Shown: in pieces, positions 4,461 to 28,829 of the stretch
Numbering within the stretch: position 1 is the stretch's first letter
Layout of the letters: every line of letters starts with the position of its first letter
Source of the DNA: an uncultured Gammaproteobacteria bacterium
GTDB taxonomy: Bacteria; Pseudomonadota; Gammaproteobacteria; Steroidobacterales; Rariloculaceae
Assembly (NCBI GenBank): GCA_963782445.1
Contig: CAWAJM010000001.1
Span: 1,822,224-1,886,223, forward strand
Direction of reading: 5' to 3'
DNA length: 64,000 bases
The notes under the pieces: generated by a model
The model's input: the letters and a program-made list of their open reading frames with translations, nothing else
What the model was told of the DNA's origin: nothing
Database searches by the model: none
Made by a program: the position numbers and the translations under genes

Positions 4461-5381
4461 ATGCATCAAGCGAACACGAGTCGGCGAGAATTCCTGGCCA
4501 TGGCCGCCGCGGCCGGCGCTCTGGGGCTAGGATCCGGCCGCAGCGAGGCGGCGCCGCCGCTGCCGAAGCGGACGATACCCGGCACGGCCGAGCGCTTGCC
4601 CGTCATCGGGCTCGGGTCGAGCAAGGTCGTCGAGCAGATTGCGACGCACGGCGCGCAGCCGCTCGACAGCGTGCTGCATGCGCTCGTTGCGGGAGGCGGC
4701 AGCGTCGTCGACACGTGGCCTAGGAATGTGGACAACGACAGGGCCTTCGGCCGCGTCATCAACGAGCCCGACCTCGCGGGCCGGTTGTTCGTGACCATGA
4801 AGCTCACGATGCCCGGCCGGCAGGCGGGCGTCGAGCAGTTCCGGCAGGTCCAGCAGCTCTATGGCCGCAAGACTTTCGATCTGGCCCAAATCTTCAGTCT
4901 CGTGGACGTCGACACGCATTGGCCGACGCTGCAGGCGTTCAAGGAGGCCCAAGCGGCGCGCTACATCGGGGTCACGGTCGCCGAATACCGGCTCTACGAC
5001 GCGCTCGAGGCCTTCCTCGCCCGTGCGAAGCCGGACTTCGTGCAGGTCAACTACTCGGTCACCGAGCGCCGCGCGGAGCAGCGCGTGCTGCCGCGCCTCG
5101 CGGCGTCGGGAATAGGGGTCATCGTGAATCGGCCGTTCATGAACGGCACGTATTTCGGCCGGCTCGGCGATCGGCCCGTGCCGGCGTGGGCGGCCGATTT
5201 CGGCTGCCGGACCTGGGCTCAGTTCTCGCTGAAGTACATTCTGGCCAATCCGGCCGTGACATGCGTGTTGACCGAGACGACCAACCCGGCGCACCTGCAG
5301 GAGAATCTTGCGGCGGCCTTCGGCCGCCTCCCGGATGAGTCCGAGCGGCGGCGCATGAGGGCCTTCATCGACTCGGTATGA
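4461..5381 (+). CDS. Tat-signal aldo/keto reductase family oxidoreductase
   Basis: MHQANTSRREFLAMAAAAGALGLG is a twin-arginine signal. The body resembles an AKR (LPVIGLGS..., YIGVT, IGVIVNRPF, ILANPAVTCVLTETTNPAHLQENL). The ATG at 4461 is preferred over the listed 4413 start. Confidence 0.7.
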   Translation: MHQANTSRREFLAMAAAAGALGLGSGRSEAAPPLPKRTIPGTAERLPVIGLGSSKVVEQIATHGAQPLDSVLHALVAGGGSVVDTWPRNVDNDRAFGRVINEPDLAGRLFVTMKLTMPGRQAGVEQFRQVQQLYGRKTFDLAQIFSLVDVDTHWPTLQAFKEAQAARYIGVTVAEYRLYDALEAFLARAKPDFVQVNYSVTERRAEQRVLPRLAASGIGVIVNRPFMNGTYFGRLGDRPVPAWAADFGCRTWAQFSLKYILANPAVTCVLTETTNPAHLQENLAAAFGRLPDESERRRMRAFIDSV

Positions 5382-5393
5382 GCGCGTATACCG

Positions 5394-5675
5394 TCACGAG
5401 CGCCGCACCCAATCGATGTCCTCGAAGTGCTCGAGATACGCCTGCAAGTGCGCAATGCGGCGGCGGAGTTCGACGTGCTGCGAGATGCGCTGCTCGATCT
5501 CGCGCTGAGCGTGACGAGCCAGGAGCGTGAACGTGCGGACGGCGTGCTCGACCTCTTCGCGGCTGCACTCCGCGAGCGGTTTCTCGTTCAGATTCTCGTC
5601 GACGGGCACGTCGCTCGGCAGTTCGAGCTGGCTGAATTCGACCTCGACGACTTCCGGTACGTTGTAAGTCGGCAT
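5394..5675 (-). CDS. Hypothetical acidic 93-aa protein
   Basis: The internal ATG (MPTYNVPEVVEVEF...) is preceded by GGGAGG with a 7-nt spacer. The listed N-terminal extension is Arg/Pro-rich and unlikely to be real. I recognise no family. Confidence 0.45.
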   Translation of the reverse strand: MPTYNVPEVVEVEFSQLELPSDVPVDENLNEKPLAECSREEVEHAVRTFTLLARHAQREIEQRISQHVELRRRIAHLQAYLEHFEDIDWVRRS

Positions 5676-5917
5676 TCGGTGCCTCCCTATTCGCGGCCTG
5701 CGCGGCCCCGCGGGGCGGCCGTCTGCGGCTCGGCGGTGGCCGGCCCTCGGGCGCGGCATGGACAGATGCGCGGATTATAGACGAACCGGCCGGCACGCCG
5801 CCGGTCTAAGCTCGTCCGGCGCCGCGGGTCTAGCGGCAATCCCTTATTCGTCGGGCCCTCGGGCTTCGACTATGCTGCATGCTCGTTTGTCAGGCTGACG
5901 AAGAGGAAGGTGGAGAC

Positions 5918-6418
5918 GTGAACGCGAGACGGAAGACCGGGACCTGGGCGGCGAGTCGGGCCGGGGACGGGCGCACGACCCGGTGGCTCGGCGCCGTATT
6001 GTTGCTGACGGGCGTACTTTGTGGGGCGGGACGCGCAGCGGCCCAGGCACAGCTCTTCGGGCTGACCGACTACTCCGGGGCGGAGCTGTATCAGCAGTTT
6101 TGCTCGGCCTGCCACGGCGCCGGCGCTCACGGCGACGGCCCGGTCGCGGCGACGCTGAACGTCATGGTTCCGGACCTGACGCGGCTCGCCCAGGGTAACG
6201 GCGGCCACTTTCCGGCCGAAAAGGTCCGGGCGATGATCGACGGCCGCAGCCTCATCGCGGCCCACGGGACGCGCACGATGCCGGTCTGGGGTTATGAGTT
6301 CTGGGTCACGGAGGGCGCCGACCGGCAGGCCGAGGCCGATGCCAGAAAGGTCATCAACCGGGTGGTCCGCTATCTCGAGTCCATCCAGGCGCCGGACCCG
6401 CGCGGCTTGCCGCAGTGA
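5918..6418 (+). CDS. Monohaem c-type cytochrome, secreted
   Basis: There is a single CSACH haem motif after a signal-like segment (WLGAVLLLTGVLCGAGRAAAQA), plus a distal Met (RTMPVWG). The start is either GTG 5918 (GAGGAAGG upstream) or ATG 5879. Confidence 0.7.
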   Translation: MNARRKTGTWAASRAGDGRTTRWLGAVLLLTGVLCGAGRAAAQAQLFGLTDYSGAELYQQFCSACHGAGAHGDGPVAATLNVMVPDLTRLAQGNGGHFPAEKVRAMIDGRSLIAAHGTRTMPVWGYEFWVTEGADRQAEADARKVINRVVRYLESIQAPDPRGLPQ

Positions 6419-6571
6419 GCACGGCGCCGGTCGAGACCGGTTCTACCCCTAGGCAGCGGTTTTTGGTACGATACCGCCTCTTTTATCGCGGAGTATCCGT
6501 TCTGAGGAGGCTTTCGGGTCCCTGCGGGGGTCCGGCAAGTAGGTCCGGGTACCGGCCGACAGGTTAGGTGG

Positions 6572-6598
6572 AAGGGCCCCTTTTGGGGCCTTTTGTTT
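6572..6598 (+). terminator. Intrinsic terminator-like hairpin
   Basis: GGCCCC-TTTT-GGGGCC is followed by TTTTGTTT. It lies about 155 nt after the cytochrome c stop codon. Confidence 0.5.
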
Positions 6599-6650
6599 GG
6601 TCCGGCCCGCATCCTCGCGTGCGTTCGAGGAGTGCGGCGCGGACCCGAAG

Positions 6651-6678
6651 ATGGGCCTCCGAAGGCCCATTTTTTGTT
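6651..6678 (+). terminator. Intrinsic terminator or attenuator hairpin immediately upstream of rimP
   Basis: ATGGGCCT-CCGA-AGGCCCAT is a perfect 8-bp stem followed by TTTTTTGTT. It ends 6 nt before the proposed rimP GTG. Confidence 0.5.
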
Positions 6679-6683
6679 ACTGG

Positions 6684-7202
6684 GTGCAGGTGCCAAGGCA
6701 GTTCGACAAGCAGGGAATCATCGATTTGCTGGAACCGGTCGTCGCCACGCTCGGCTTCGAGCTCGTCGATATCGACGTACGCTTCGGGCGCAACGGGCTG
6801 CTGCGCCTGTATATCGACCGCCCGGGCGGCGACGAGGCGGCGGCTGCGGCGGCGGAGACGACGGACGAACCGTCACAGGGCGGAATTACGCTCGCGGATT
6901 GCGAGCTCGTGAGCGGACAGGTCGGGGCGTTCCTGGATGTGGAAGATCCACTGCCGAACAGGTACGTGCTCGAAGTATCTTCGCCCGGGCTCGATCGGAA
7001 GCTGCGCACCCGCGCACATTTCGAACGGTTTGCGGGCAGTGAAATCCGCGTCGAGCTCGCGCACGCGGTCGAAGGCCGGCGCCGCTTTCGGGGGCGCCTT
7101 ATGGGCATCGAGGGAGAGGACATCGTCATCGACGCCGAGGGCCAAGCCCTGCGCTTGCGCCTCGACGACATCGCGGAGGCACGGCTTGTGCCGAACGCCT
7201 AG
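6684..7202 (+). CDS. rimP: Ribosome maturation factor RimP
   Basis: LLEPVVATLGFELVDIDV...LEVSSPGLDRKL...RLVPNA aligns with E. coli RimP, and the gene sits upstream of nusA. The start is GTG 6684 or 6690. The listed ATG starts fall inside the leader hairpins. Confidence 0.85.
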   Translation: MQVPRQFDKQGIIDLLEPVVATLGFELVDIDVRFGRNGLLRLYIDRPGGDEAAAAAAETTDEPSQGGITLADCELVSGQVGAFLDVEDPLPNRYVLEVSSPGLDRKLRTRAHFERFAGSEIRVELAHAVEGRRRFRGRLMGIEGEDIVIDAEGQALRLRLDDIAEARLVPNA

Positions 7203-18185: not shown

Positions 18186-21100
18186 ATGCGCCTGAGTAAG
18201 ATCAAGCTTGCGGGCTTCAAGTCTTTCGTCGACGCAACGACGATTACTTTCCCGAGCAATCTCATGGGCATTGTCGGGCCGAACGGTTGCGGCAAGTCCA
18301 ACGTCATCGACGCGATCCGCTGGGTGCTCGGCGAGAGCTCGGCCAAGACGCTGCGCGGCGATTCGATGACGGACGTCATCTTCAACGGCTCGAGCGGCCG
18401 CAAGCCTGTGAGCCAGGCCAGCATCGAGCTCGTATTCGACAATTCCGACGGCACTGTCACGGGCGCCTACGCGCAGTACGCGGAGATCGCAGTGAAGCGC
18501 GTTCTGACGCGCGACGGCAATTCGCAGTACTGGCTCAACGCCAGCCGCTGTCGCCGCAAGGACATCCTGCACATCCTGCTGGGCACCGGGCTCGGCACGA
18601 ACGGCTATTCGATCATCGAGCAGGGCATGATCTCGCGCATCGTAGAGGCCAAGCCCGACGAGCTGCGCGGCTTCCTCGAGGAGGCCGCCGGTATCTCGAA
18701 ATATAAAGAGCGGCGCCGCGAGACCGAGCACCGCATCCGGCACACGCGCGACAATCTCGAGCGCCTCGGCGACCTGCGCGAGGAGATCGAGAAGCAGCTC
18801 TCCCATCTGCAGAGGCAGGCTACGGCCGCGGCCAAGTACAAGGAGCTCAAGAGCGAGGAGCGGCGCGTGCATGCCGAGCTGCTGGCGCTGCGCCTGCGCG
18901 CGCTCGGGGCGGAGCTCGAGGCGCAGGAGGCCGTGCTGGCGGAAAAGAAGGCCGCGCTCGAGGCCGCGCTCGAAGGCCGGCGGGGCATGGAGCAGGAGTC
19001 CGAACGGCTGCGTGCGACGCTCGCCGAGCGAAACGAGGCGCTGAACGGCGTCCAAGGCGACTATTATCGAGTCGGCGCCGAGCTCGCCCGGCTCGAGCAG
19101 GCCATCCAGCACCGCAAGGACCTCATCAAGCGCCAGCGCGAAGATCTCGAGACGACAGAGCAGCAGCTCGAAGAGATTCGCTCCCACATTGCCAACGATG
19201 AGCTCGAGCTCGAGCAGCTCGACCACGCGCTCGAGGCGTTGAGCCCGGAGCTCGAGCAGGCCGTGGACAACCGGCAGGCGGCCGAGGCGTGTCTGGCCGA
19301 GGCCGAGGCGTCTATGGAGTCCTGGCGCGGGCGCTGGGAGCAGGTCGCGAGCCAGTTCTCGAACACGGAGAGCGCTGCGCGTGTCGAGGAGGCGAGGCTG
19401 GAGCAGCTCACGGCGCAACGCGATCGCTTGCAGCGCGATCTCGACAAGCAGGCCGCCGAGCGCGCGGGCATCGACCTCGAGGAGCCGGAGACACGCCTGG
19501 AGCAGCTGTTCGGCCAGGAGGAAGCGCTCAACGGCGCGTGCGCCGAAGCGGCGCGTTCGCTGGACGGCGTGTGGCAACGCATTCAGGAGCTGCGGGAGCA
19601 GGACAAGCGGATCTCTGCCGAGCTGCACGAGTTGCGCGAGATGCTGCAGAACGACCGCGGTCGGCTGGCGTCGCTCGAGGCGCTGCAGGAGGCGGCGCTC
19701 GGCGAGACCACGAAGCAGGTGGGCCGGTGGCTCGAAAGCGCCCCGCTCGCGGATCGCCGCAGCCTCGCCGAGCGGCTCGTCGTGGACGCCGGTTGGGACC
19801 GGGCGGTCGAAACGGTGCTCGGCAGCTATCTGCAGGCCGTCAGCGTCGATGCGCTCGAATCGGTGGCCGAGAGCCTCGGCGAGCTGACGGAGGGCGGGCT
19901 CGCACTGCTCGAGGAATCCGATGCGGCCGCCGCCCCGAGCTCGGCGGCCGCGGGTTGGCTCGTGGACCATGTCCGCGAGCCGGCATCGGCCAGGGGGCTG
20001 CTCCACGGTGTCCGCACCGCCGAGTCGCTGCAGGGTGCCGTCTCCATGCGCTCGCAGCTCGCTCCTGGCGAGTCGATCGTGACGCGCGACGGCTTTTGGA
20101 TCGGCCGCAACTGGCTGCGCATCAACCGCAGCGACGACCCGGAGGTCGGCGTCATCGTGCGCGGCGAGGAGATCGCGCGCCTCAGGGAGAAGATCGAGTC
20201 GACCGCGGCGCGCGTCGAGGACGTCGCGGAACGGCTGGCCGAGACGCGGGCGCACCTCGAGCAGCTCGAGGAGGCGCGCAAGGACGCTCAGAACGAATCG
20301 ACGCGGCGCCAGCAGCTTCATGCCGAAGCGAAAACGAAGCTCGAGTCCGCGCGCGCCGAGCTCGAACAGGTCCGCAACCGCGCGACGGGGCTCGACCGGT
20401 CCATCGAAGAGCTGCGCGCCGAGCGGCTCGCTGCCGAACAGAAGCTCGAAGAGAGCCAAATCCGGCGCGAGCAGGCGGCCACGCAGCAAGAGGAGCTCGC
20501 CGGCGTTCGCGAGCGGCTCGAGCACGAGCGCGATCATCATCAGTCCGTGCTGTCCGAGGCGCGTGCCCAGGCCGAGCACGACCGCCAGGCCGCCCACGAC
20601 CTCGCCCTCAAGGTCGAATCGCGCCGGCACTCGAAGGAGTCCGCCAGCGCCGCGCTCGCCCGCGTGCAGGCGCAGCAGCAGCATCTGCTGAAGCGCCGCG
20701 ACGAGCTGCGGAGCCGTCTCGAGGGGGCCGCGGAGCCACTGGCCGAAGACGAGGCGCGGCTCGGTACGCTCGCCCACGAGCGCGCGAACGTCGAGGCCCG
20801 CCTGGCCGAGGCCCGTGCAGCAGCCGAGCAGACCGATGCGGAGCTTCGCGAGCTCGAGCAGCGGCGCAGCCAGGCCCAGCAGGCCGTCGCCGAGGCTCGG
20901 GAGGCGGCCGACGCCGTTCGCCTGACGGTCCGCGAGGCGCAGGTTCGGTCCGAGACCGTCGCCGAACAGTTCCGGGAGACCGAATTCGAGCTCGCGCAGG
21001 TCTTGGCTGAGCTGCCCGAAGACGCCGAGGCGGGGCAATGGCACGAGTCGCTTGAGCGCCTCGAGCGGCGCATCCAGCGCCTCGGCGCCATCAACCTCGC

Positions 21101-21695
21101 GGCCATCGACGAGTTCGAGCAACAGTCCGAGCGCAAGAAATATCTCGACTCACAATTTGCCGATCTCACGGAAGCGCTCGAGACGCTCGAGAACGCCATC
21201 CGCAAGATCGACCGCGAAACGCGGACTCGCTTCAAGGACACGTTCGAGCGCGCGAACCAGGGGCTCCAGCGGCTGTTTCCGCGCCTTTTCGGGGGCGGTC
21301 ATGCCTATCTGGAGCTCGAGGGCGAAGACCTGCTCGAGGCCGGCGTCGCGATCATGGCGCGGCCGCCCGGCAAGCGGAACAGCACGATCCACCTGCTCTC
21401 GGGAGGGGAGAAGGCGCTGACGGCCGTCGCGCTCGTGTTCTCGATCTTCGAGCTGAACCCTGCGCCGTTCTGTCTCCTCGACGAGGTCGACGCGCCGCTC
21501 GACGATGCAAATGTCGGCCGGTTTTCGGACATCGTTCGCGAGATGTCCGATCAGGTCCAGTTCGTCATCATTACTCACAACAAGACGACGATGGAGACGA
21601 TGCATCAGTTGACGGGCGTCACGATGCACGAGCCCGGCGTGTCGCGTCTCGTCGCCGTCGATCTCGATGAGGCGGTGAAACTGGCCGCCATGTAA
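18186..21695 (+). CDS. smc: Chromosome partition protein Smc
   Basis: The 1169-aa protein has a Walker A motif (GPNGCGKSNV), long coiled coils, a hinge, the signature LSGGEKALTA and a Walker B motif (FCLLDEVDAPLD). Confidence 0.96.
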   Translation: MRLSKIKLAGFKSFVDATTITFPSNLMGIVGPNGCGKSNVIDAIRWVLGESSAKTLRGDSMTDVIFNGSSGRKPVSQASIELVFDNSDGTVTGAYAQYAEIAVKRVLTRDGNSQYWLNASRCRRKDILHILLGTGLGTNGYSIIEQGMISRIVEAKPDELRGFLEEAAGISKYKERRRETEHRIRHTRDNLERLGDLREEIEKQLSHLQRQATAAAKYKELKSEERRVHAELLALRLRALGAELEAQEAVLAEKKAALEAALEGRRGMEQESERLRATLAERNEALNGVQGDYYRVGAELARLEQAIQHRKDLIKRQREDLETTEQQLEEIRSHIANDELELEQLDHALEALSPELEQAVDNRQAAEACLAEAEASMESWRGRWEQVASQFSNTESAARVEEARLEQLTAQRDRLQRDLDKQAAERAGIDLEEPETRLEQLFGQEEALNGACAEAARSLDGVWQRIQELREQDKRISAELHELREMLQNDRGRLASLEALQEAALGETTKQVGRWLESAPLADRRSLAERLVVDAGWDRAVETVLGSYLQAVSVDALESVAESLGELTEGGLALLEESDAAAAPSSAAAGWLVDHVREPASARGLLHGVRTAESLQGAVSMRSQLAPGESIVTRDGFWIGRNWLRINRSDDPEVGVIVRGEEIARLREKIESTAARVEDVAERLAETRAHLEQLEEARKDAQNESTRRQQLHAEAKTKLESARAELEQVRNRATGLDRSIEELRAERLAAEQKLEESQIRREQAATQQEELAGVRERLEHERDHHQSVLSEARAQAEHDRQAAHDLALKVESRRHSKESASAALARVQAQQQHLLKRRDELRSRLEGAAEPLAEDEARLGTLAHERANVEARLAEARAAAEQTDAELRELEQRRSQAQQAVAEAREAADAVRLTVREAQVRSETVAEQFRETEFELAQVLAELPEDAEAGQWHESLERLERRIQRLGAINLAAIDEFEQQSERKKYLDSQFADLTEALETLENAIRKIDRETRTRFKDTFERANQGLQRLFPRLFGGGHAYLELEGEDLLEAGVAIMARPPGKRNSTIHLLSGGEKALTAVALVFSIFELNPAPFCLLDEVDAPLDDANVGRFSDIVREMSDQVQFVIITHNKTTMETMHQLTGVTMHEPGVSRLVAVDLDEAVKLAAM

Positions 21696-21706
21696 CGGCG
21701 ACGACG

Positions 21707-24534
<2,828 letters not shown>

Positions 24535-24536
24535 GT

Positions 24537-25376
24537 ATGCGTTCTGCGTTTCAGCAAGCTGTGCTCGCATCGCTCGCGGGCCTTCTGATGCCCGTCGCCC
24601 GGTTGATGCTGAGATGCGGCGTTGGCTGCCCCGAATTCGTGGCCGTCACCAAAGCAGTGTTCGTGCAGGTTGCGTCGGAGCAGTACGGCGTCAGAGGAAG
24701 GCCAGCCAATGCTTCTCGGGTCGCGGCGATTACGGGATTGTCACGAAAACAAGTCAGGCGGATAAAGGAAGTGGGGCCGGTAGCGCGCTGGACGCCCGAA
24801 ATGGAGTCCACCCCCGCTAATGTCGTCCTGCACTATTGGCACTTCGACCCCGAGTACTCGGAGGCGCCCGGACAACCGCGATGGCTTTCCCTTGAGGGAG
24901 AGAAGAGCTTCAGTACCCTAGTTCGCGACTACGCGGGAGATATCCCGCCGACCGCGATGCTGAAGGCGTTGATGAGAGTGGGCGCGATTAGACGGGACCG
25001 CGCGCAGCAACTCCTCCCGCAAGAACGGTATTTCTATCCAGCAGATTTTGACGAAGATTTTGTCCACAACGCTGCCTTTGCGCTCCGAAGCCTTGGCGAT
25101 ACGTTGGTCTATAACGCTACGATATGGGCTGCTGCCGACGGTGCGGGCGATCAGTGTGCGGCCGAGGAAAGCCGCTTCGAGCGCGTCGCATGGACTGACC
25201 GTTTCACTCCCGAGGTGACGGCAGCCTTCAAGGCCTGGGTTCGCGCGGAGGGTACGAAGTTCATAGAGGAAGCGGATGATTGGATCGGGAAGAACGAGGG
25301 GACGAAAGAACGGCCATTCCCCGGAGAGCCGAGGGCCGTTGGCGTTGGCCTGTATTATTTTGAGGAAGAACGATAA
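24537..25376 (+). CDS. Uncharacterised protein with a putative N-terminal HTH (island paralog A)
   Basis: The 279-aa protein starts 2 nt after the ligA stop. It is homologous along its length to ORF 27993..28829, with shared blocks P(L/V)(A/V)R, EF, VFV.VA, SR.A..TGLSRK.V.R.K, WH.DPEY, SF..LV....GD..P.A.L..LMRVGA, RFER and GVG.Y.F. Confidence 0.7.
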   Translation: MRSAFQQAVLASLAGLLMPVARLMLRCGVGCPEFVAVTKAVFVQVASEQYGVRGRPANASRVAAITGLSRKQVRRIKEVGPVARWTPEMESTPANVVLHYWHFDPEYSEAPGQPRWLSLEGEKSFSTLVRDYAGDIPPTAMLKALMRVGAIRRDRAQQLLPQERYFYPADFDEDFVHNAAFALRSLGDTLVYNATIWAAADGAGDQCAAEESRFERVAWTDRFTPEVTAAFKAWVRAEGTKFIEEADDWIGKNEGTKERPFPGEPRAVGVGLYYFEEER

Positions 25377-25927
25377 GAAGGCAAGTCTGCGCGTACTAGC
25401 CTGTACAGACGCGCGAAATTTTGGGTCGTTTGGTCAAAATGATCCTTAACGAAACGCATCCCAAGCTTTTCTAATACTCTGATACTTCTGGTATTTTCTT
25501 TGTAAACTAAACCAAAAATACGTTCGAGGGCGAGACCGTCGGCCGCGAACGCAATTGATACCAGCTCGCTGGCTGCCTCGAGAGCGAAACCGTATCCCCA
25601 TTCCGTTACCGCTAGCCCATATGTGACTTCGAACTCGTCGAAGTCGTTCATCCGCTCTATTCCGCACCAGCCTATCACTCTCCCACTAGCTCGATTCTCC
25701 ATGGCAAGGGCACCGAATCCCGTTGATTCAACCTTGTAAATCAACCGCTCAAGTGATCGACGGGACTCGGACCGGCTCTTCGTGCCTCCTGCATAGCGGT
25801 TGACGTCCTCATCGCGATGGAGCTCGAACAGTGCGTCAGCGTCTTCGATGCGGAATGCACGTATCAAAAGGCGCTGGCCACATATAGGTAGGAACTTAGT
25901 GAGCCCCGGGGAGTGTGGTGATTCCAA
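25355..25927 (-). CDS. GNAT family N-acetyltransferase (RimJ/RimL-like)
   Basis: LLIRAFRIEDADALFEL...IGWCGIER...EVTYGLAVTEWGYGFALEAA...N.RSIRVLEKLGMRF is the typical pattern. The gene has low GC, and its 3' end overlaps paralog A by 22 nt (convergent). Confidence 0.8.
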   Translation of the reverse strand: MESPHSPGLTKFLPICGQRLLIRAFRIEDADALFELHRDEDVNRYAGGTKSRSESRRSLERLIYKVESTGFGALAMENRASGRVIGWCGIERMNDFDEFEVTYGLAVTEWGYGFALEAASELVSIAFAADGLALERIFGLVYKENTRSIRVLEKLGMRFVKDHFDQTTQNFARLYRLVRADLPSYRSSSK

Positions 25928-26316
25928 AAATAGGTTCTCTGAAAAAACTCGTTTTAAAACAGTGTGTTATAGGTTATTGCCCGTGCAGAGGCACCATCGC
26001 ACGAGCGATCGAAATTGGTTACACCGGCAAAGAATCTCACAGTTTTTTTTTGACTTTCCATGAAGTAAGTCATGTTTCTTCTTGACGCAATCCCGAAATG
26101 CGACCAAAATCCCACCAAACAGAATTATGTACAGTTCGAAGGGCTTTTGTTAAAAGCCACGCGCGGTAGCTAAGAAGAATCCGCCAATCCGAACCAACAA
26201 AAATAAGTCCTATAACAGTGAACAGAAATAGCAAGGCGCTAGGGCAGATCTTGGGGATTGTCAAGAGACCTGTCTTAGCGGAGTCCGAGACTCTGGCAAC
26301 CTCCGGAGGGGTTCAC

Positions 26317-27831
26317 ATGCGCAAACTCCGCGTCGCTCCTGGCTCTGGTGCAGTGATGATGGCGGCCGTGGTGTCTTCCTTTTTTCTTCTTGTTGGCCCC
26401 TCGTACGGGGCGACCGGCAGTAGCGTTCAGGGTATCACGGGCAGCGGATCGCGCGGCATCACGGGCAGTGGATCGCGCGGCATCACAGGCAGTGGATCGC
26501 GCGGCATCACGGGCAGTGGATCGCGCGGCATCACGGGCAGTGGATCGCGCGGCATCACAGGCAGTGGATCGCGCGGCATCACGGGCAGTGGATCGCGCGG
26601 CATCACGGGCAGTGGATCGCGCGGCATCACAGGCAGTGGATCGCGCGGCATCACGGGCAGTGGATCGCGCGGCATCACGGGCAGTGGATCGCGCGGCATC
26701 ACAGGCAGTGGATCGCGCGGCATCACGGGCAGTGGATCGCGCGGCATCACGGGCAGTGGATCGCGCGGCATCACAGGCAGTGGATCGCGCGGCATCACGG
26801 GCAGTGGATCGCGCGGCATCACGGGCAGTGGATCGCGCGGCATCACAGGCAGTGGATCGCGCGGCATCACAGGCAGTGGATCAAGGGGCGCGACTGCCGC
26901 TGGGTCGGCGATTTTCCAGTCGATCGCTATGGGGCCAGTTGATGCGGTTGATTCGGCTGGCGGCGTTTCGATTATCTCCGTGCTAGGGCAGACCTTCGTT
27001 GCGCCTTCTGCCCAGATTTCGGGCCTTTCAGCCGGAGACTATGTCTTAGCTGCGGGCTCTGGTGATGGTGAGTTGTCTGTGCTTGTTCCTCTCGACGAGC
27101 CTTACGTTCCCGGAGCCTCTCCCGTCCTTATCCGAGGCTCCGTCAATTCAGTCAATGCCGACACGGGGCAGATGTCCGTCGGTCTTGCCTCGGTTGACTT
27201 CACGGGAGAGTTGGCCACTGACGCGTCGTTTTCCCCGACCCCTGGACAATTGGTTGAGGTCGGCGGAATTCAGCCTGCAGCTGGTGGTGTGGTTCTTGCG
27301 GGAATCACGGGTAGCGGATCCCGAGGCATTACTGGCAGCGGTTCTCGCGGGATCACGGGCAGCGGTTCTCGCGGGATCACGGGCAGCGGTTCTCGCGGGA
27401 TCACGGGCAGCGGTTCTCGCGGGATCACGGGCAGCGGTTCTCGCGGGATCACGGGCAGCGGTTCGCGAGGCATTACTGGCAGCGGCTCCCGCGGCATCAC
27501 GGGCAGTGGCGTGCGAGGGATTACTGGCAGTGGCCTCCGTGGTATCACGGGCAGCGGTTCGCGAGGTATTACTGGCAGCGGCTCCCGAGGCATCACGGGC
27601 AGTGGCCTGCGAGGTATTACCGGCAGTGGTCTCCGTGGTATCACGGGCAGCGGTTCGCGGGGAATTACCGGTAGCGGGTCTCGCGGCATCACGGGCAGCG
27701 GTTCACGGGGAATTACCGGTAGCGGGTCTCGCGGCATCACGGGTAGTGGCTTGCGAGGGGTTACTGGCAGCGGTCTTCGTGGTATCACTGGTAGCGGGTC
27801 ACGCGGGATAACCGGCAGCGGATCGCGCTGA
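26317..27831 (+). CDS. Secreted octapeptide-repeat protein: 19 x GITGSGSR, a 138-aa core, then 22 x GITGSG(S/L/V)R
   Basis: GGAGGGG lies 5 nt upstream of the ATG at 26317. The signal peptide is MRKLRVAPGSGAVMMAAVVSSFFLLVGPSYG/A. Repeats account for 328 of the 504 residues. Synonymous codon variation among the units of the second array supports translation in this frame. Confidence 0.78.
   Translation: MRKLRVAPGSGAVMMAAVVSSFFLLVGPSYGATGSSVQGITGSGSRGITGSGSRGITGSGSRGITGSGSRGITGSGSRGITGSGSRGITGSGSRGITGSGSRGITGSGSRGITGSGSRGITGSGSRGITGSGSRGITGSGSRGITGSGSRGITGSGSRGITGSGSRGITGSGSRGITGSGSRGITGSGSRGATAAGSAIFQSIAMGPVDAVDSAGGVSIISVLGQTFVAPSAQISGLSAGDYVLAAGSGDGELSVLVPLDEPYVPGASPVLIRGSVNSVNADTGQMSVGLASVDFTGELATDASFSPTPGQLVEVGGIQPAAGGVVLAGITGSGSRGITGSGSRGITGSGSRGITGSGSRGITGSGSRGITGSGSRGITGSGSRGITGSGSRGITGSGVRGITGSGLRGITGSGSRGITGSGSRGITGSGLRGITGSGLRGITGSGSRGITGSGSRGITGSGSRGITGSGSRGITGSGLRGVTGSGLRGITGSGSRGITGSGSR
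26431..26886 (+). repeat. Near-perfect tandem array, 19 x 24 bp, with a 72-bp higher-order period
   Basis: Units GGCATCAC(G/A)GGCAGTGGATCGCGC run head to tail. The Thr codon alternates acg-acg-aca six times. Confidence 0.97.
27301..27828 (+). repeat. Diverged tandem array, 22 x 24 bp, encoding the same octapeptide
   Basis: The units differ mostly at synonymous positions. Six units carry S to L or S to V at position 7, and one of these also carries I to V at position 2. Confidence 0.95.
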
Positions 27832-27867
27832 CGTTAACGTTCCATTCGCGTCGTCCCTTCACAAGCG

Positions 27868-27916
27868 GGGCGAGGCCTAACGGCGATCGTGTCGTTGGGC
27901 CTCGCCCTTTTTGTTG
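27868..27916 (+). terminator. Intrinsic terminator of the repeat-protein gene
   Basis: GGGCGAGGCC, a 20-nt loop and GGCCTCGCCC form a perfect 10-bp stem, followed by TTTTTGTTG. Confidence 0.7.
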
Positions 27917-27992
27917 TCTGTTTGATCCCCTCAAGTCGAAAGAACGACGCGTTTAATTGCGGGCGCGATTCTTGGTGTGATAACTAGAGCCG

Positions 27993-28829
27993 ATGGGAGA
28001 ATCTGTACGAATCGGCCTTCTGTCCGCCTTCCGCCGGCTAATGCAGCCGTTAGTTCGTATTCTCGTGCGTAATGGTGTTTCGTACCAAGAGTTCGCGGAA
28101 CTTTTGAAGAGCGTCTTCGTGGAAGTAGCGGAACGTGACTTCACCATTGCGGGACGCAAGTCCTCGCAATCCCGAATTGCCATACTGACTGGGTTAAGCC
28201 GAAAGGAAGTCTCGAGGCAGAAGGCAATACTAGCTGGTGGCGGGCCAATTGACGCTACCAGCAACCTTAATGGAATTACCCGACTGCTGGTCGGATGGCA
28301 TTCCGACCCGGAGTACACAGGGCCTTATGGAATGCCAATTGAAGTACCTTTCGAATCGGCTGGTGGTCCCAGTTTCACTCAACTCGTCAAGCGCCATAGT
28401 GGCGACATGGCGCCGAGGGCCGTCCTTGACGAGCTGATGAGGGTCGGTGCTGTCGACGAGTTGGGCAATGGCTTGCTTCGCGTGCTTACCCTCGCCTACA
28501 TCCCGCAACGCTTGAACCCGGACGCGCTTGAGCGCTTTGGGGAGGTAGTAAGAAATTTCATATGCACATACGAATACAACATGGAACGGCCGCCTTCAGC
28601 GTCGGGTGCTGGTCGCTTCGAACGAATCGTTTTTCCGGACGATGGGCTGCGCCCGAGTCTGATGCCGGCTTTCGAGAAGCTGATTAGGACCAAAGGCCAG
28701 CAGCTACTTGTCGAACTGCTCAATTGGCTAAATGCACAGGAAATTTCCCAAGATGCTAAGCCGAGCGACAGCACAAGAATTAATACGGGCGTTGGCATCT
28801 ACCACTTTATCGATGACGGATCGGAATAG
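27993..28829 (+). CDS. Uncharacterised protein with a putative N-terminal HTH (island paralog B)
   Basis: The 278-aa protein is homologous to ORF 24537..25376 (see that entry) and has low GC. Confidence 0.7.
   Translation: MGESVRIGLLSAFRRLMQPLVRILVRNGVSYQEFAELLKSVFVEVAERDFTIAGRKSSQSRIAILTGLSRKEVSRQKAILAGGGPIDATSNLNGITRLLVGWHSDPEYTGPYGMPIEVPFESAGGPSFTQLVKRHSGDMAPRAVLDELMRVGAVDELGNGLLRVLTLAYIPQRLNPDALERFGEVVRNFICTYEYNMERPPSASGAGRFERIVFPDDGLRPSLMPAFEKLIRTKGQQLLVELLNWLNAQEISQDAKPSDSTRINTGVGIYHFIDDGSE

Follow-up and report, generated by a model that had tools for sequence, protein, structure and literature searches.

The 64,000-nucleotide stretch analysed here (the window; GenBank assembly GCA_963782445.1, contig CAWAJM010000001.1, positions 1,822,224 to 1,886,223) comes from an uncultured Gammaproteobacteria bacterium with 66.7% G+C and carries, between two genes of the DUF6502 family, a gene for a protein of 504 amino acids that consists largely of 41 copies of an octapeptide, GITGSGSR or a close variant of it. 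The original prediction, made from the letters of the stretch alone, had singled out this protein as one whose repeat could not be placed in any described class; that part of it stood, but it had missed both the large protein family and the DUF6502 cassette to which the gene belongs. Sequence comparisons indicate that DUF6502 and an exported DUF5666 protein together make up a module conserved in Alpha- and Gammaproteobacteria. The features of the locus are as follows.

24537-25376, plus strand: DUF6502 paralogue A, a cytoplasmic helix-turn-helix protein (Pfam PF20112, E 3.3e-32)
26082-26113, plus strand: promoter-like site TTGACG-17-CAAAAT, including an overlapping element (promoter scan)
26100-26113, plus strand: degenerate copy of a near-palindrome, GCGACCAAAATCCC, overlapping the -10 hexamer of the promoter-like site
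26305-26311, plus strand: Shine-Dalgarno site GGAGGGG, 5 nt ahead of the ATG (read from the sequence)
26317-27831, plus strand: repeat-protein open reading frame (ORF) encoding 504 aa (read from the sequence)
26317-26409, plus strand: Sec-type signal peptide, aa 1-31, with predicted cleavage after S-Y-G (sequence features judged by eye)
26431-26886, plus strand: array 1, 19 units of GITGSGSR, aa 39-190 (translation parse, Tandem Repeats Finder)
26887-27300, plus strand: acidic core of 138 aa, aa 191-328, with two small DUF5666-like beta-barrels predicted by AlphaFold2
27301-27831, plus strand: array 2, 22 units, aa 329-504, then the stop codon (translation parse, Tandem Repeats Finder)
27867-27918, plus strand: intrinsic terminator-like hairpin with a 19-bp stem and 12 G-C pairs, then TTTTTGTTGT (hairpin scan)
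27993-28829, plus strand: DUF6502 paralogue B, a cytoplasmic helix-turn-helix protein (Pfam PF20112, E 2.1e-50)

Re-parsing the sequence returned the gene call, the Shine-Dalgarno site and the layout of 38 residues, 19 units, core and 22 units exactly as they had been proposed. The first 38 residues read MRKLRVAPGSGAVMMAAVVSSFFLLVGPSYG followed by ATGSSVQ, and the features of the Sec-type signal peptide claimed earlier are present, namely a positive n-region, a hydrophobic core and the small-x-small site S-Y-G; a comparable signal peptide begins the homologue P0002. Array 1 is contiguous, with all 19 units reading GITGSGSR, and array 2 comprises 16 GITGSGSR, four GITGSGLR, one GITGSGVR and one GVTGSGLR unit. 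The six units of array 2 with Leu or Val at position 7, and the last unit running straight into the stop codon, were counted as originally described. The promoter-like site (26082-26110) and the strong terminator-like hairpin (27867-27908), which a T-run follows, frame a monocistronic unit. From these sequence features the ORF is read as a real gene that is separately transcribed and whose product is predicted to be Sec-exported by its signal.

Repeat arrays and selection on the unit peptide

Tandem Repeats Finder described array 1 as 18.7 copies with a period of 24 at 97% identity (score 842), and array 2 as 22.4 copies with periods of 24 and 48 at 75-80% identity (score up to 545); both scores are far above chance. 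At the DNA level the units of array 1 exist in only four versions and are nearly identical to one another, with a synonymous ACG/ACG/ACA pattern that generates a 72-bp super-period. The units of array 2 comprise 18 distinct DNA versions with a higher-order period of 48 bp, also synonymous, and the peptide common to both arrays is written with different codons in each. The three DNA versions that had been quoted as examples of codon variation were located at units 329, 337 and 449/465.

Pairwise comparison of the array 2 units in the annotated frame gave a proportion of synonymous differences (pS) of 0.66 and of non-synonymous differences (pN) of 0.055, a ratio of 0.08, whereas the ratio in frame +1 was 4.9, which confirms both the coding frame and selection at the peptide level. 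The earlier argument that selection acts on the peptide was thus borne out: the unit peptide, not its DNA, is under purifying selection.

These values also bear on the possibility that there is no gene here, that the product lies in another frame or on the other strand, or that the arrays are an assembly error. Long ORFs do occur in the remaining frames and on the complementary strand, and repeats break and collapse assemblies, such that the exact copy numbers of 19 and 22 may be wrong. Against an artefact stand the contrast between the two ratios, the fit of the Shine-Dalgarno site, signal peptide and terminator to the annotated frame, the conservation of the core in more than 1000 protein clusters with a predicted local distance difference test score (pLDDT) above 90, and the same architecture in the homologues. 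We regard an artefact as having a negligible probability, and the other long ORFs are by-products of a stop-free repeat.

The arrays could alternatively be mere flexible spacers or filler, kept uniform by unequal crossing-over, with only the DUF5666 core being of consequence. In composition they match a Gly-Ser linker, at 37.5% Gly and 22-25% Ser and a single Ile and Arg in each unit; copy number varies greatly among relatives, and the near-identical DNA of array 1, with its 72-bp amplification unit, makes a recent recombinational expansion certain. Homogenisation alone is nonetheless insufficient to account for array 2, where synonymous sites have diverged with the peptide unchanged, nor for the use of different codons for one peptide in the two arrays. 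Three observations on relatives, which are considered with the family below, also run counter to filler: the pattern G-hydrophobic-x-G-[SGT]-[GDN] is kept whilst the cores are only 25-60% identical, close relatives retain a lone matching unit at the C-terminus, and distant alphaproteobacterial proteins contain two copies of a related motif, D[RHN]G[IL]GG[ST]G. Spacers are accordingly an improbable explanation.

AlphaFold2, run on the repeat protein with a 23-sequence alignment, assigned no secondary structure to any of the 328 repeat residues, with pLDDT values of 33-40 (array 1, 36-40; array 2, 33-39). The three-sided beta-solenoid that had been proposed as a speculation finds no support in this model. 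The arrays carry a net charge of +41 and the core one of -11; Asp and Glu are absent from all 41 units.

The repeat could not be assigned to any catalogued class. The repeat protein and its core had no match at E<=1 in Pfam or NCBIfam and none in PADLOC or PHROGs, and the repeat matches no family in the Protein Data Bank (PDB). The search for the string GITGSG and five other unit strings returned no relevant article from the full-text literature, and the earlier statement that no described repeat class applies therefore holds for these sources. Neither the Ice_nucleation, RTX/HemolysinCabind and solenoid families of Pfam nor its collagen, pentapeptide, hexapeptide and curlin models matched the window protein at E<=1. 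This agrees with the earlier exclusion of RTX as well as of collagen (G-X-Y triplets), pentapeptide (A(D/N)LXX) or hexapeptide ([LIV]-G-x4) repeats and curlin; in the case of RTX, the period of eight, the lack of acidic residues in the units, the N-terminal Sec signal and a stop codon right behind the last unit point the same way. Among 146 family members the stray weak matches amounted to one each for the Collagen, Pentapeptide and Decapeptide models.

Ice-nucleation proteins, with the repeat AGYGSTxT, had been named as the one formal parallel. They share with the window protein an eight-residue period, a composition rich in Gly, Ser and Thr, very long arrays and a higher-order periodicity in the DNA, but differ from it in the unit itself (GITGSGSR here), in the Pfam match and predicted beta structure that are both absent here, and in an N-terminal membrane-anchoring domain, in contrast to the Sec signal and central barrel core of the window protein. 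The higher-order parallel finds no support. Ice-nucleation proteins form a solenoid of 16-residue coils with a 48-residue higher order, whereas the super-periods found here, 72 bp in one array and 48 bp in the other, are synonymous and unlike between arrays, and hence reflect amplification history and not a structural super-repeat. The RTX repeat (GGxGxDxUx) is likewise a short Gly-rich unit with one hydrophobic residue, has Asp or Asn after the glycines as do many members of the present family, and may, like the arrays, be disordered until exported. It differs in its period, which is 8 in the window protein and 8-13 in the family, in the acidic residue that the window unit lacks, in its C-terminal type I secretion signal as opposed to a Sec signal, and in the Pfam match and beta-roll prediction that are missing here.

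These likenesses raise the possibility that the arrays form beta-rolls or beta-solenoids outside the cell, dependent on ions or self-association, and act as an adhesin, a matrix fibre or an ice- or mineral-binding surface. A single hydrophobic residue in every 8-10, with a turn-like G-[SG]-[GDN] motif after it, formally resembles the strand-plus-turn of RTX, many family units place Asp or Asn at the turn (GIHGGD, SIIGGD and SINGSD, for instance), and two family members weakly match a grass antifreeze beta-roll model (best E 2e-4). RTX repeats, too, are disordered without calcium. The model contains no strands, however, and no relevant Pfam family was matched; the window unit lacks an acidic residue with which to bind calcium, and 41 arginines stacked together would be mutually repulsive. 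A period that ranges from 8 to 13 inside one homologous family is hard to fit to a single solenoid geometry, relatives with no more than one to three units exist, and there is neither an outer-membrane anchor nor a type I secretion signal. On balance, we consider this reading very doubtful.

The core domain and the protein family

In the AlphaFold2 model the core (residues 197-329) was predicted with pLDDT values of 92-96 and contains two strand groups, at residues 202-258 and 269-328, which would fold as two small beta-barrels of the DUF5666 type, a domain that is itself an all-beta barrel of about 60 residues and often occurs in tandem. The window protein has no match to Pfam DUF5666 (PF18914) at E<=1, but its homologue P0003 matches with 33.6 bits (E 4.7e-8) against a gathering score of 27 bits, and 69 of 146 family members match at E<=0.01, so that DUF5666 membership would hold by transitivity through the family, there being no direct match. 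The earlier suggestion that the core resembles DUF5666 was hence right at the family level, and the two modelled barrels agree with it. A Foldseek search of the PDB with the full-length model, in which the large disordered parts depress TM-scores, returned weak OB/Mop-type barrels (SSB, the best, at E 0.013, and ModG at E 0.025) and is read as indicating a small OB-like barrel, nothing more specific. The only match of the core profile to PDB sequences, CsgH (E 0.067), was not significant.

The barrel also exists in long tandem-domain form: P0027, a lipoprotein-like metagenomic protein of 1324 aa, is matched eight times by the core profile and contains nine DUF5666 domains (Pfam E 8.6e-75) without short-repeat arrays.

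A first search retrieved six relatives with the same core and with arrays, N-terminal, C-terminal or both, of the unit GITGSGxR; in one of the six the same core is accompanied instead by a ten-residue unit, GIHGGDSNTx. When the core profile was compared with 1.84 billion cluster representatives, 1151 proteins were matched at E<=1e-3 and 455 at E<=1e-10, each standing for a cluster at 50% identity, so that the core family comprises at least 1151 such clusters. The window protein can thus be placed, on sequence and architecture, in a large family built on the same plan. Clear arrays were present in 118 of the 175 family sequences examined, with basic periods of 8 (the commonest), 9, 10, 11 and 13, copy numbers from 1 to about 40, and positions at the N-terminus, the C-terminus or both. 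The units follow the pattern [GSA]-[ILVMFYQ]-x-G-[GST]-[GDSNA] with a variable tail, which may be summarised as G-hydrophobic-x-G-[SGT]-[GDN] plus a tail of 2-7 residues; examples include GIHGGDSALR, SIIGGDLNSR, AIVGTGKQAQ, SIIGTAKVSPS, GISGSGLK and GFSGSN....

Units are near-uniform inside one protein and unlike between lineages, and the unit type follows phylogeny in the loci at hand. The six-position motif is kept across cores that share 25-60% identity. In close relatives an N-terminal array is combined with exactly one unit of the same type at the extreme C-terminus, GITGSGLR in loci L012-L015 (...QGITGSGLR-stop) and GIHGGDRR in L030-L034 (...RGIHGGDRR-stop), which argues that the unit is a functional motif and not filler. 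The low pN/pS, the codon-divergent arrays and these lone C-terminal units together point to the same conclusion from sequence.

One family unit touches a curated repeat model, and this is the only hint of its kind: P0080 (L096, 5001-5885), with the unit LMKGGGVEAS, has a sub-threshold match to PF25296, 'Decapeptide repeat region', of 27.9 bits (cut-off 45). The arrays also affect how the family is represented in public data. Metagenome contigs and those of metagenome-assembled genomes (MAGs) very often end inside or beside arrays, as seen at the contig starts of L011-L062, and in one MAG (L002, 8118-8220) a scaffold gap, a run of N, lies inside an array. Arrays therefore break contigs, public copy numbers are unreliable, and the family is probably under-annotated; in practical terms, such breakage is routine in assemblies.

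The DUF6502 cassette and a possible relation to HetR

The repeat gene of the window lies between the two DUF6502 paralogues, and this association recurs. A DUF6502 gene adjoined the repeat gene in all 13 of the loci reached from the side of the repeat protein, among which the window and eight related loci share an smc-zipA-ligA neighbourhood and five (L008, L010, L096, L097 and L098) have unrelated neighbourhoods and quite different units. L097 has three called DUF6502 genes; L008 has four DUF6502 ORFs, but two of these are probably parts of a single gene that has been split. Approached from the DUF6502 side, a metagenome scan gave 80 loci, with a core gene beside DUF6502 in 46; in each of the other 34, one flank or both are shorter than 1000 nt, and many of these stop at the very point where an array would be expected. 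Wherever the flanking DNA was long enough, one to three DUF6502 genes stood alongside the repeat gene. A search of genome contigs yielded at least one related locus, in a Gammaproteobacteria MAG. Three gene orders were observed, A>core>B as in the window, B>core<A and A>B>core, and the A-type paralogue occurs in other cassette loci too; the paralogues A and B are both old. The public call for paralogue B (P0177, 262 aa) starts 16 codons downstream of ours, at 28041 as opposed to 27993. The longer form may be correct, since homologues align from its first residue.

Searches with tblastn located DUF6502 on 75 plasmids and chromids, 66 of them from Rhizobium. In four annotated replicons, those of Azospirillum lipoferum 4B, Rhizobium leguminosarum WSM1325, Methylocystis iwaonis and Rhizobium johnstonii 3841, the DUF6502 gene overlaps the start of a gene for a 'DUF5666 domain-containing protein' by 4 nt. 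Examples of such pairs are pRL120059/pRL120060 (R. johnstonii 3841), AZOLI_RS30480/RS20800 (A. lipoferum 4B) and VN910_RS18340/RS18335 (M. iwaonis); in the R. johnstonii pair, pRL120060/pRL120059, the annotation 'hypothetical exported protein' is found. These alphaproteobacterial pairs resemble the window cassette in combining a cytoplasmic DUF6502 protein with an exported DUF5666-barrel protein, all of them uncharacterised. The exported partners likewise have an N-terminal export signal and low-complexity tails, and the motif D[RHN]G[IL]GG[ST]G, Gly-rich with one aliphatic residue, stands just before their first barrel. They differ in having two motif copies against 41, Pro/Gly/Arg-rich tails, a signal that in Rhizobium looks Tat-type (SRRQFL), and a single DUF6502 gene (two in the window) that is translationally coupled by the 4-nt overlap. 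The window core profile does not detect the alphaproteobacterial DUF5666 proteins, so the link consists of the Pfam family and the gene context only.

Relatives are annotated as 'DUF5666 domain-containing protein' and 'DUF6502 family protein'. The full-text literature search returned no article on DUF6502 and nothing relevant for the Rhizobium and Azospirillum accession numbers, and in the entries examined DUF5666 appeared only in rows of gene or protein tables; no functional study of the DUF6502-DUF5666 module was found in this literature. None of the sources searched describes the repeat class, the architecture of the family or the conserved module, the domains themselves being catalogued as DUFs, and the pair of DUF6502 and repeat protein is probably an undescribed regulatory module.

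DUF6502 proteins have no signal peptide. There were 1117 homologues, and the best-scoring 120 of them are 60-76% identical to paralogue B, which makes DUF6502 much better conserved than its exported partner (cores 25-60%). The AlphaFold2 model of paralogue B (mean pLDDT 66.6, with a poor C-terminal third below 50) begins with four helices, among them a helix-turn-helix (residues 59-81), continues with a unit like a winged helix (128-164) and has a C-terminal alpha-beta-alpha-beta segment with the invariant strands GRFERIVF and GVGIYHF. Weak Pfam helix-turn-helix matches were also obtained, and on the model DUF6502 is likely to be a DNA-binding regulator.

A candidate operator for such a regulator is found in the DNA upstream of the cassette genes. 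Alignment of the upstream regions of seven A>core>B loci revealed a shared arrangement, TTGAC-N13-14-AAAtGGGAAnAAAATCCC-...-ATTATGT, in which a near-palindrome, GGGAA-N4-(A/T)TCCC, overlaps the predicted -10 hexamer. This conserved promoter block lies at 26060-26140 of the window and upstream of the repeat gene in L001, L009, L030-L032 and L048. In A>B>core loci the element recurs (GGGAATAAATTCCC) some 38 nt ahead of paralogue B; it also precedes DUF6502-B in L065-L084, L021 and L035, and a similar palindrome, GGGAAAATTTCCC, stands ahead of the Azospirillum operon. At no more than one mismatch there were 24 matches in 99 loci (557 kb), all 24 directly upstream of a cassette gene, against 2.0 expected and a maximum of 5 in 60 simulations, although the pattern had been derived from five of the loci in which it was counted and many of the matches come from close relatives of one another. 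The GGGAA-N4-TTCCC-type element is therefore proposed as a candidate operator only. An inverted repeat in the window leader, CAAAATCCC...GGGCTTTTG, was rejected; it is not conserved in orthologous loci, and the shorter GGGAA-N4-TTCCC element was preferred to it. Rfam had no match on the whole window, so that no known riboswitch or leader is indicated in the 5' region of roughly 200 nt.

The explanation that we favour, whilst granting it somewhat less than an even chance, is that of an exported multivalent-motif protein under local DUF6502 control. The arrays would be flexible, intrinsically disordered arms that show many copies of a short linear motif to an extracytoplasmic partner, in the periplasm or outside the cell, with the barrel core as the folded binding or anchoring part. 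The DUF6502 proteins would act as dimeric DNA-binding regulators on an operator of the GGGAA-N4-TTCCC type overlapping the cassette promoters, and the exported protein and its cytoplasmic regulators would constitute one regulatory module.

Several points weigh against this explanation. The signal peptide was assigned by eye from sequence features, so export is predicted, and low AlphaFold2 confidence is no proof of disorder, given that a fold dependent on ions, a partner or oligomerisation would look alike. The charge of the arrays is unconserved, with flanking regions positive in 60% and negative in 26% of members, such that a simple polyanion-binding role is not general. The partial circularity of the operator count is noted above, and the window copy itself (26100-26113) departs from the pattern at two positions and does not exceed chance expectation inside the window. 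Plain local regulation also does not explain the retention of two to three DUF6502 paralogues. Lastly, the sole experimental data found are tolerated transposon insertions in pRL120059/60 of R. johnstonii 3841; in the supplement of the randomly barcoded transposon sequencing (RB-TnSeq) study these genes appear only among those with insertions, no phenotype being reported.

The structural comparison of DUF6502 opened a further line of argument. Foldseek returned a single significant match for the model, the DNA-bound HetR of Fischerella (4j00_A; E 7.6e-4, probability 1.00, 309 aligned columns, TM 0.42, full length), the others (CRP, MarR, sigma region 4 and more) being confined to the helix-turn-helix at E>0.5. 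HetR consists of a DNA-binding domain, whose helices 4-5 make up the helix-turn-helix, a flap domain and a hood domain of alpha-beta-alpha-beta topology, which binds the PatS hexapeptide by strand addition; the HetR dimer is intertwined (PMC4649674). In the order of its secondary structure the DUF6502 model is compatible with this, its C-terminal unit being like the HetR hood, and an intertwined dimer, if formed, would explain the low confidence of a monomer at the model termini. Sequence comparisons gave no such indication. With two DUF6502 profiles hhalign assigned HetR probabilities of about 1% and 0.1%, the HetR profile being limited in sensitivity by its two 90%-identical sequences. HetR was not found when the DUF6502 profile was run against the PDB with HMMER, none of the HetR Pfam families (Peptidase_S48 and HetR_C) matched at E<=10 in 38 DUF6502 members, and tblastn of HetR against plasmids had no match. 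The Anabaena HetR chain was absent from the top 50 Foldseek matches. A local 'P[WY]GMP' match between DUF6502 and HetR was dismissed, its positions not being collinear. A HetR-like fold for DUF6502 has, on the model, a roughly even chance of being correct.

In filamentous cyanobacteria, PatX requires Sec export and is cut by the peptidase PatP to HRGTGR, which inhibits HetR, as do RG(S/T)GR peptides (PMC12756182). By analogy with HetR, whose DNA binding is released when such a peptide occupies the hood domain, the repeat protein could be a polyprotein that proteases of the periplasm or the extracellular space cut into many unit peptides (GITGSGSR, with a terminal Arg), which would re-enter cells, bind the C-terminal domain of DUF6502, alter its DNA binding and so constitute a quorum-sensing or lateral-inhibition circuit in Proteobacteria; this reading we consider unlikely. 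The analogy draws on the full-length match to 4j00_A and on the agreement in order between four N-terminal helices, with the helix-turn-helix in the third and fourth, plus a C-terminal alpha-beta-alpha-beta segment, and HetR. Here too a Sec-signal protein with a motif of Gly, Ser, Thr and Arg is encoded beside the gene of a cytoplasmic, probably DNA-binding regulator, the arrangement of PatS and PatX. The candidate operator is a GGG...CCC palindrome, as is the GGG-N5-CCC required by HetR (PMC4649674), but with a spacing of N8. As peptides all the copies are kept the same, each lineage has its own unit type, a lone matching unit stands at the very C-terminus in close relatives, and many units end in Arg or Lys. 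In one locus, L010, a gene for a family-5 solute-binding protein (OppA/DppA type, peptide-binding; 5283-6899, minus strand) lies directly upstream of the cassette.

The analogy is opposed by the failure of hhalign, HMMER and Pfam to detect sequence similarity between DUF6502 and HetR, by the position of the Anabaena chain outside the leading Foldseek matches, and by a TM-score of just 0.42 with the C-terminal third of the model at low confidence. The RG(S/T)GR motif is absent from the 504-aa protein, in which the nearest string is SRGITGSGSR; the unit of one family member, P0145, is GLRGSGVR. Many units lack a basic junction residue (GIHGGGLQ, GIVGGDTSVN and AIVGTGKQAQ, for instance), a conserved folded core of 130 aa would be unexpected in a mere propeptide, and the cassette is not consistently accompanied by a protease or an importer. 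PatS/PatX-type precursors are moreover small and yield an active peptide of 5-8 residues, PatX having one motif, whereas the window protein has a folded core and 41 copies, and the cassette has two or three regulator paralogues and proteobacterial hosts. That the cassette is the proteobacterial counterpart of HetR-PatX, with DUF6502 proteins as remote structural relatives and lineage-specific 'pherotypes' encoded by the unit, is thus a view to which we assign a low probability.

Another family of receptor-precursor cassettes offers a looser comparison. The Rap-Phr and other RRNPP cassettes of Firmicutes have TPR receptors, precursors of about 40 aa without a folded domain, and a requirement for the Opp importer. 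They would have in common with the present cassette a receptor gene followed directly, often with overlap, by the gene of a Sec-exported peptide precursor, and lineage-specific peptide types; they differ in their TPR receptors, which are not DUF6502, in their small precursors and in their Gram-positive hosts.

With at least 1151 core clusters and 1117 DUF6502 matches, the module is more than an odd single protein, and it is present in the tractable organisms R. johnstonii 3841 and A. lipoferum 4B. Its repeat motif has no described counterpart, yet six positions are kept across divergent cores. If the arrays are multivalent binding motifs, as in the explanation that we favour, they would represent a new type of periplasmic or extracellular scaffold. 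If instead the HetR-like reading were true, it would carry beyond filamentous cyanobacteria a patterning circuit regarded as specific to them, and add peptide-based cell-cell signalling to Gram-negative Proteobacteria.

Neighbouring genes

Directly upstream of the window cassette lie smc, zipA and ligA (18186-24534). The order queF/dksA-smc-zipA-ligA-cassette-ppiC/bolA-ispA-yrdC-M50-scpA-scpB is found in most related gammaproteobacterial loci, from which it follows that, in this lineage, inheritance of the cassette is vertical and its chromosomal site is fixed. A GNAT acetyltransferase gene (25355-25927, minus strand; Pfam Acetyltransf_3, E 4e-30) is situated between DUF6502-A and the repeat gene in the window. 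No gene occupies this place in any of the related loci examined; the acetyltransferase gene, private to the window among them, looks like an insertion into the cassette.

On the Acinetobacter haemolyticus plasmid p4 (L095, 3950-6608), a transposase-like ORF, on the opposite strand, comes after the DUF6502 gene, and beyond it lies the gene of a lipoprotein that contains GGVSLGGTG and no recognised DUF5666; the cassette may be disrupted or divergent. In Rhizobium (pR132501 and pRL12; L092 and L094) the DUF6502-DUF5666 operon comes directly after a second flagellar hook gene set, flgE2, flgK2 and flgL2. A gene for a methyl-accepting chemotaxis protein is located near the Rhizobium operon, and another such gene follows the Azospirillum operon (L091); a link to motility or chemotaxis is possible from these neighbours.

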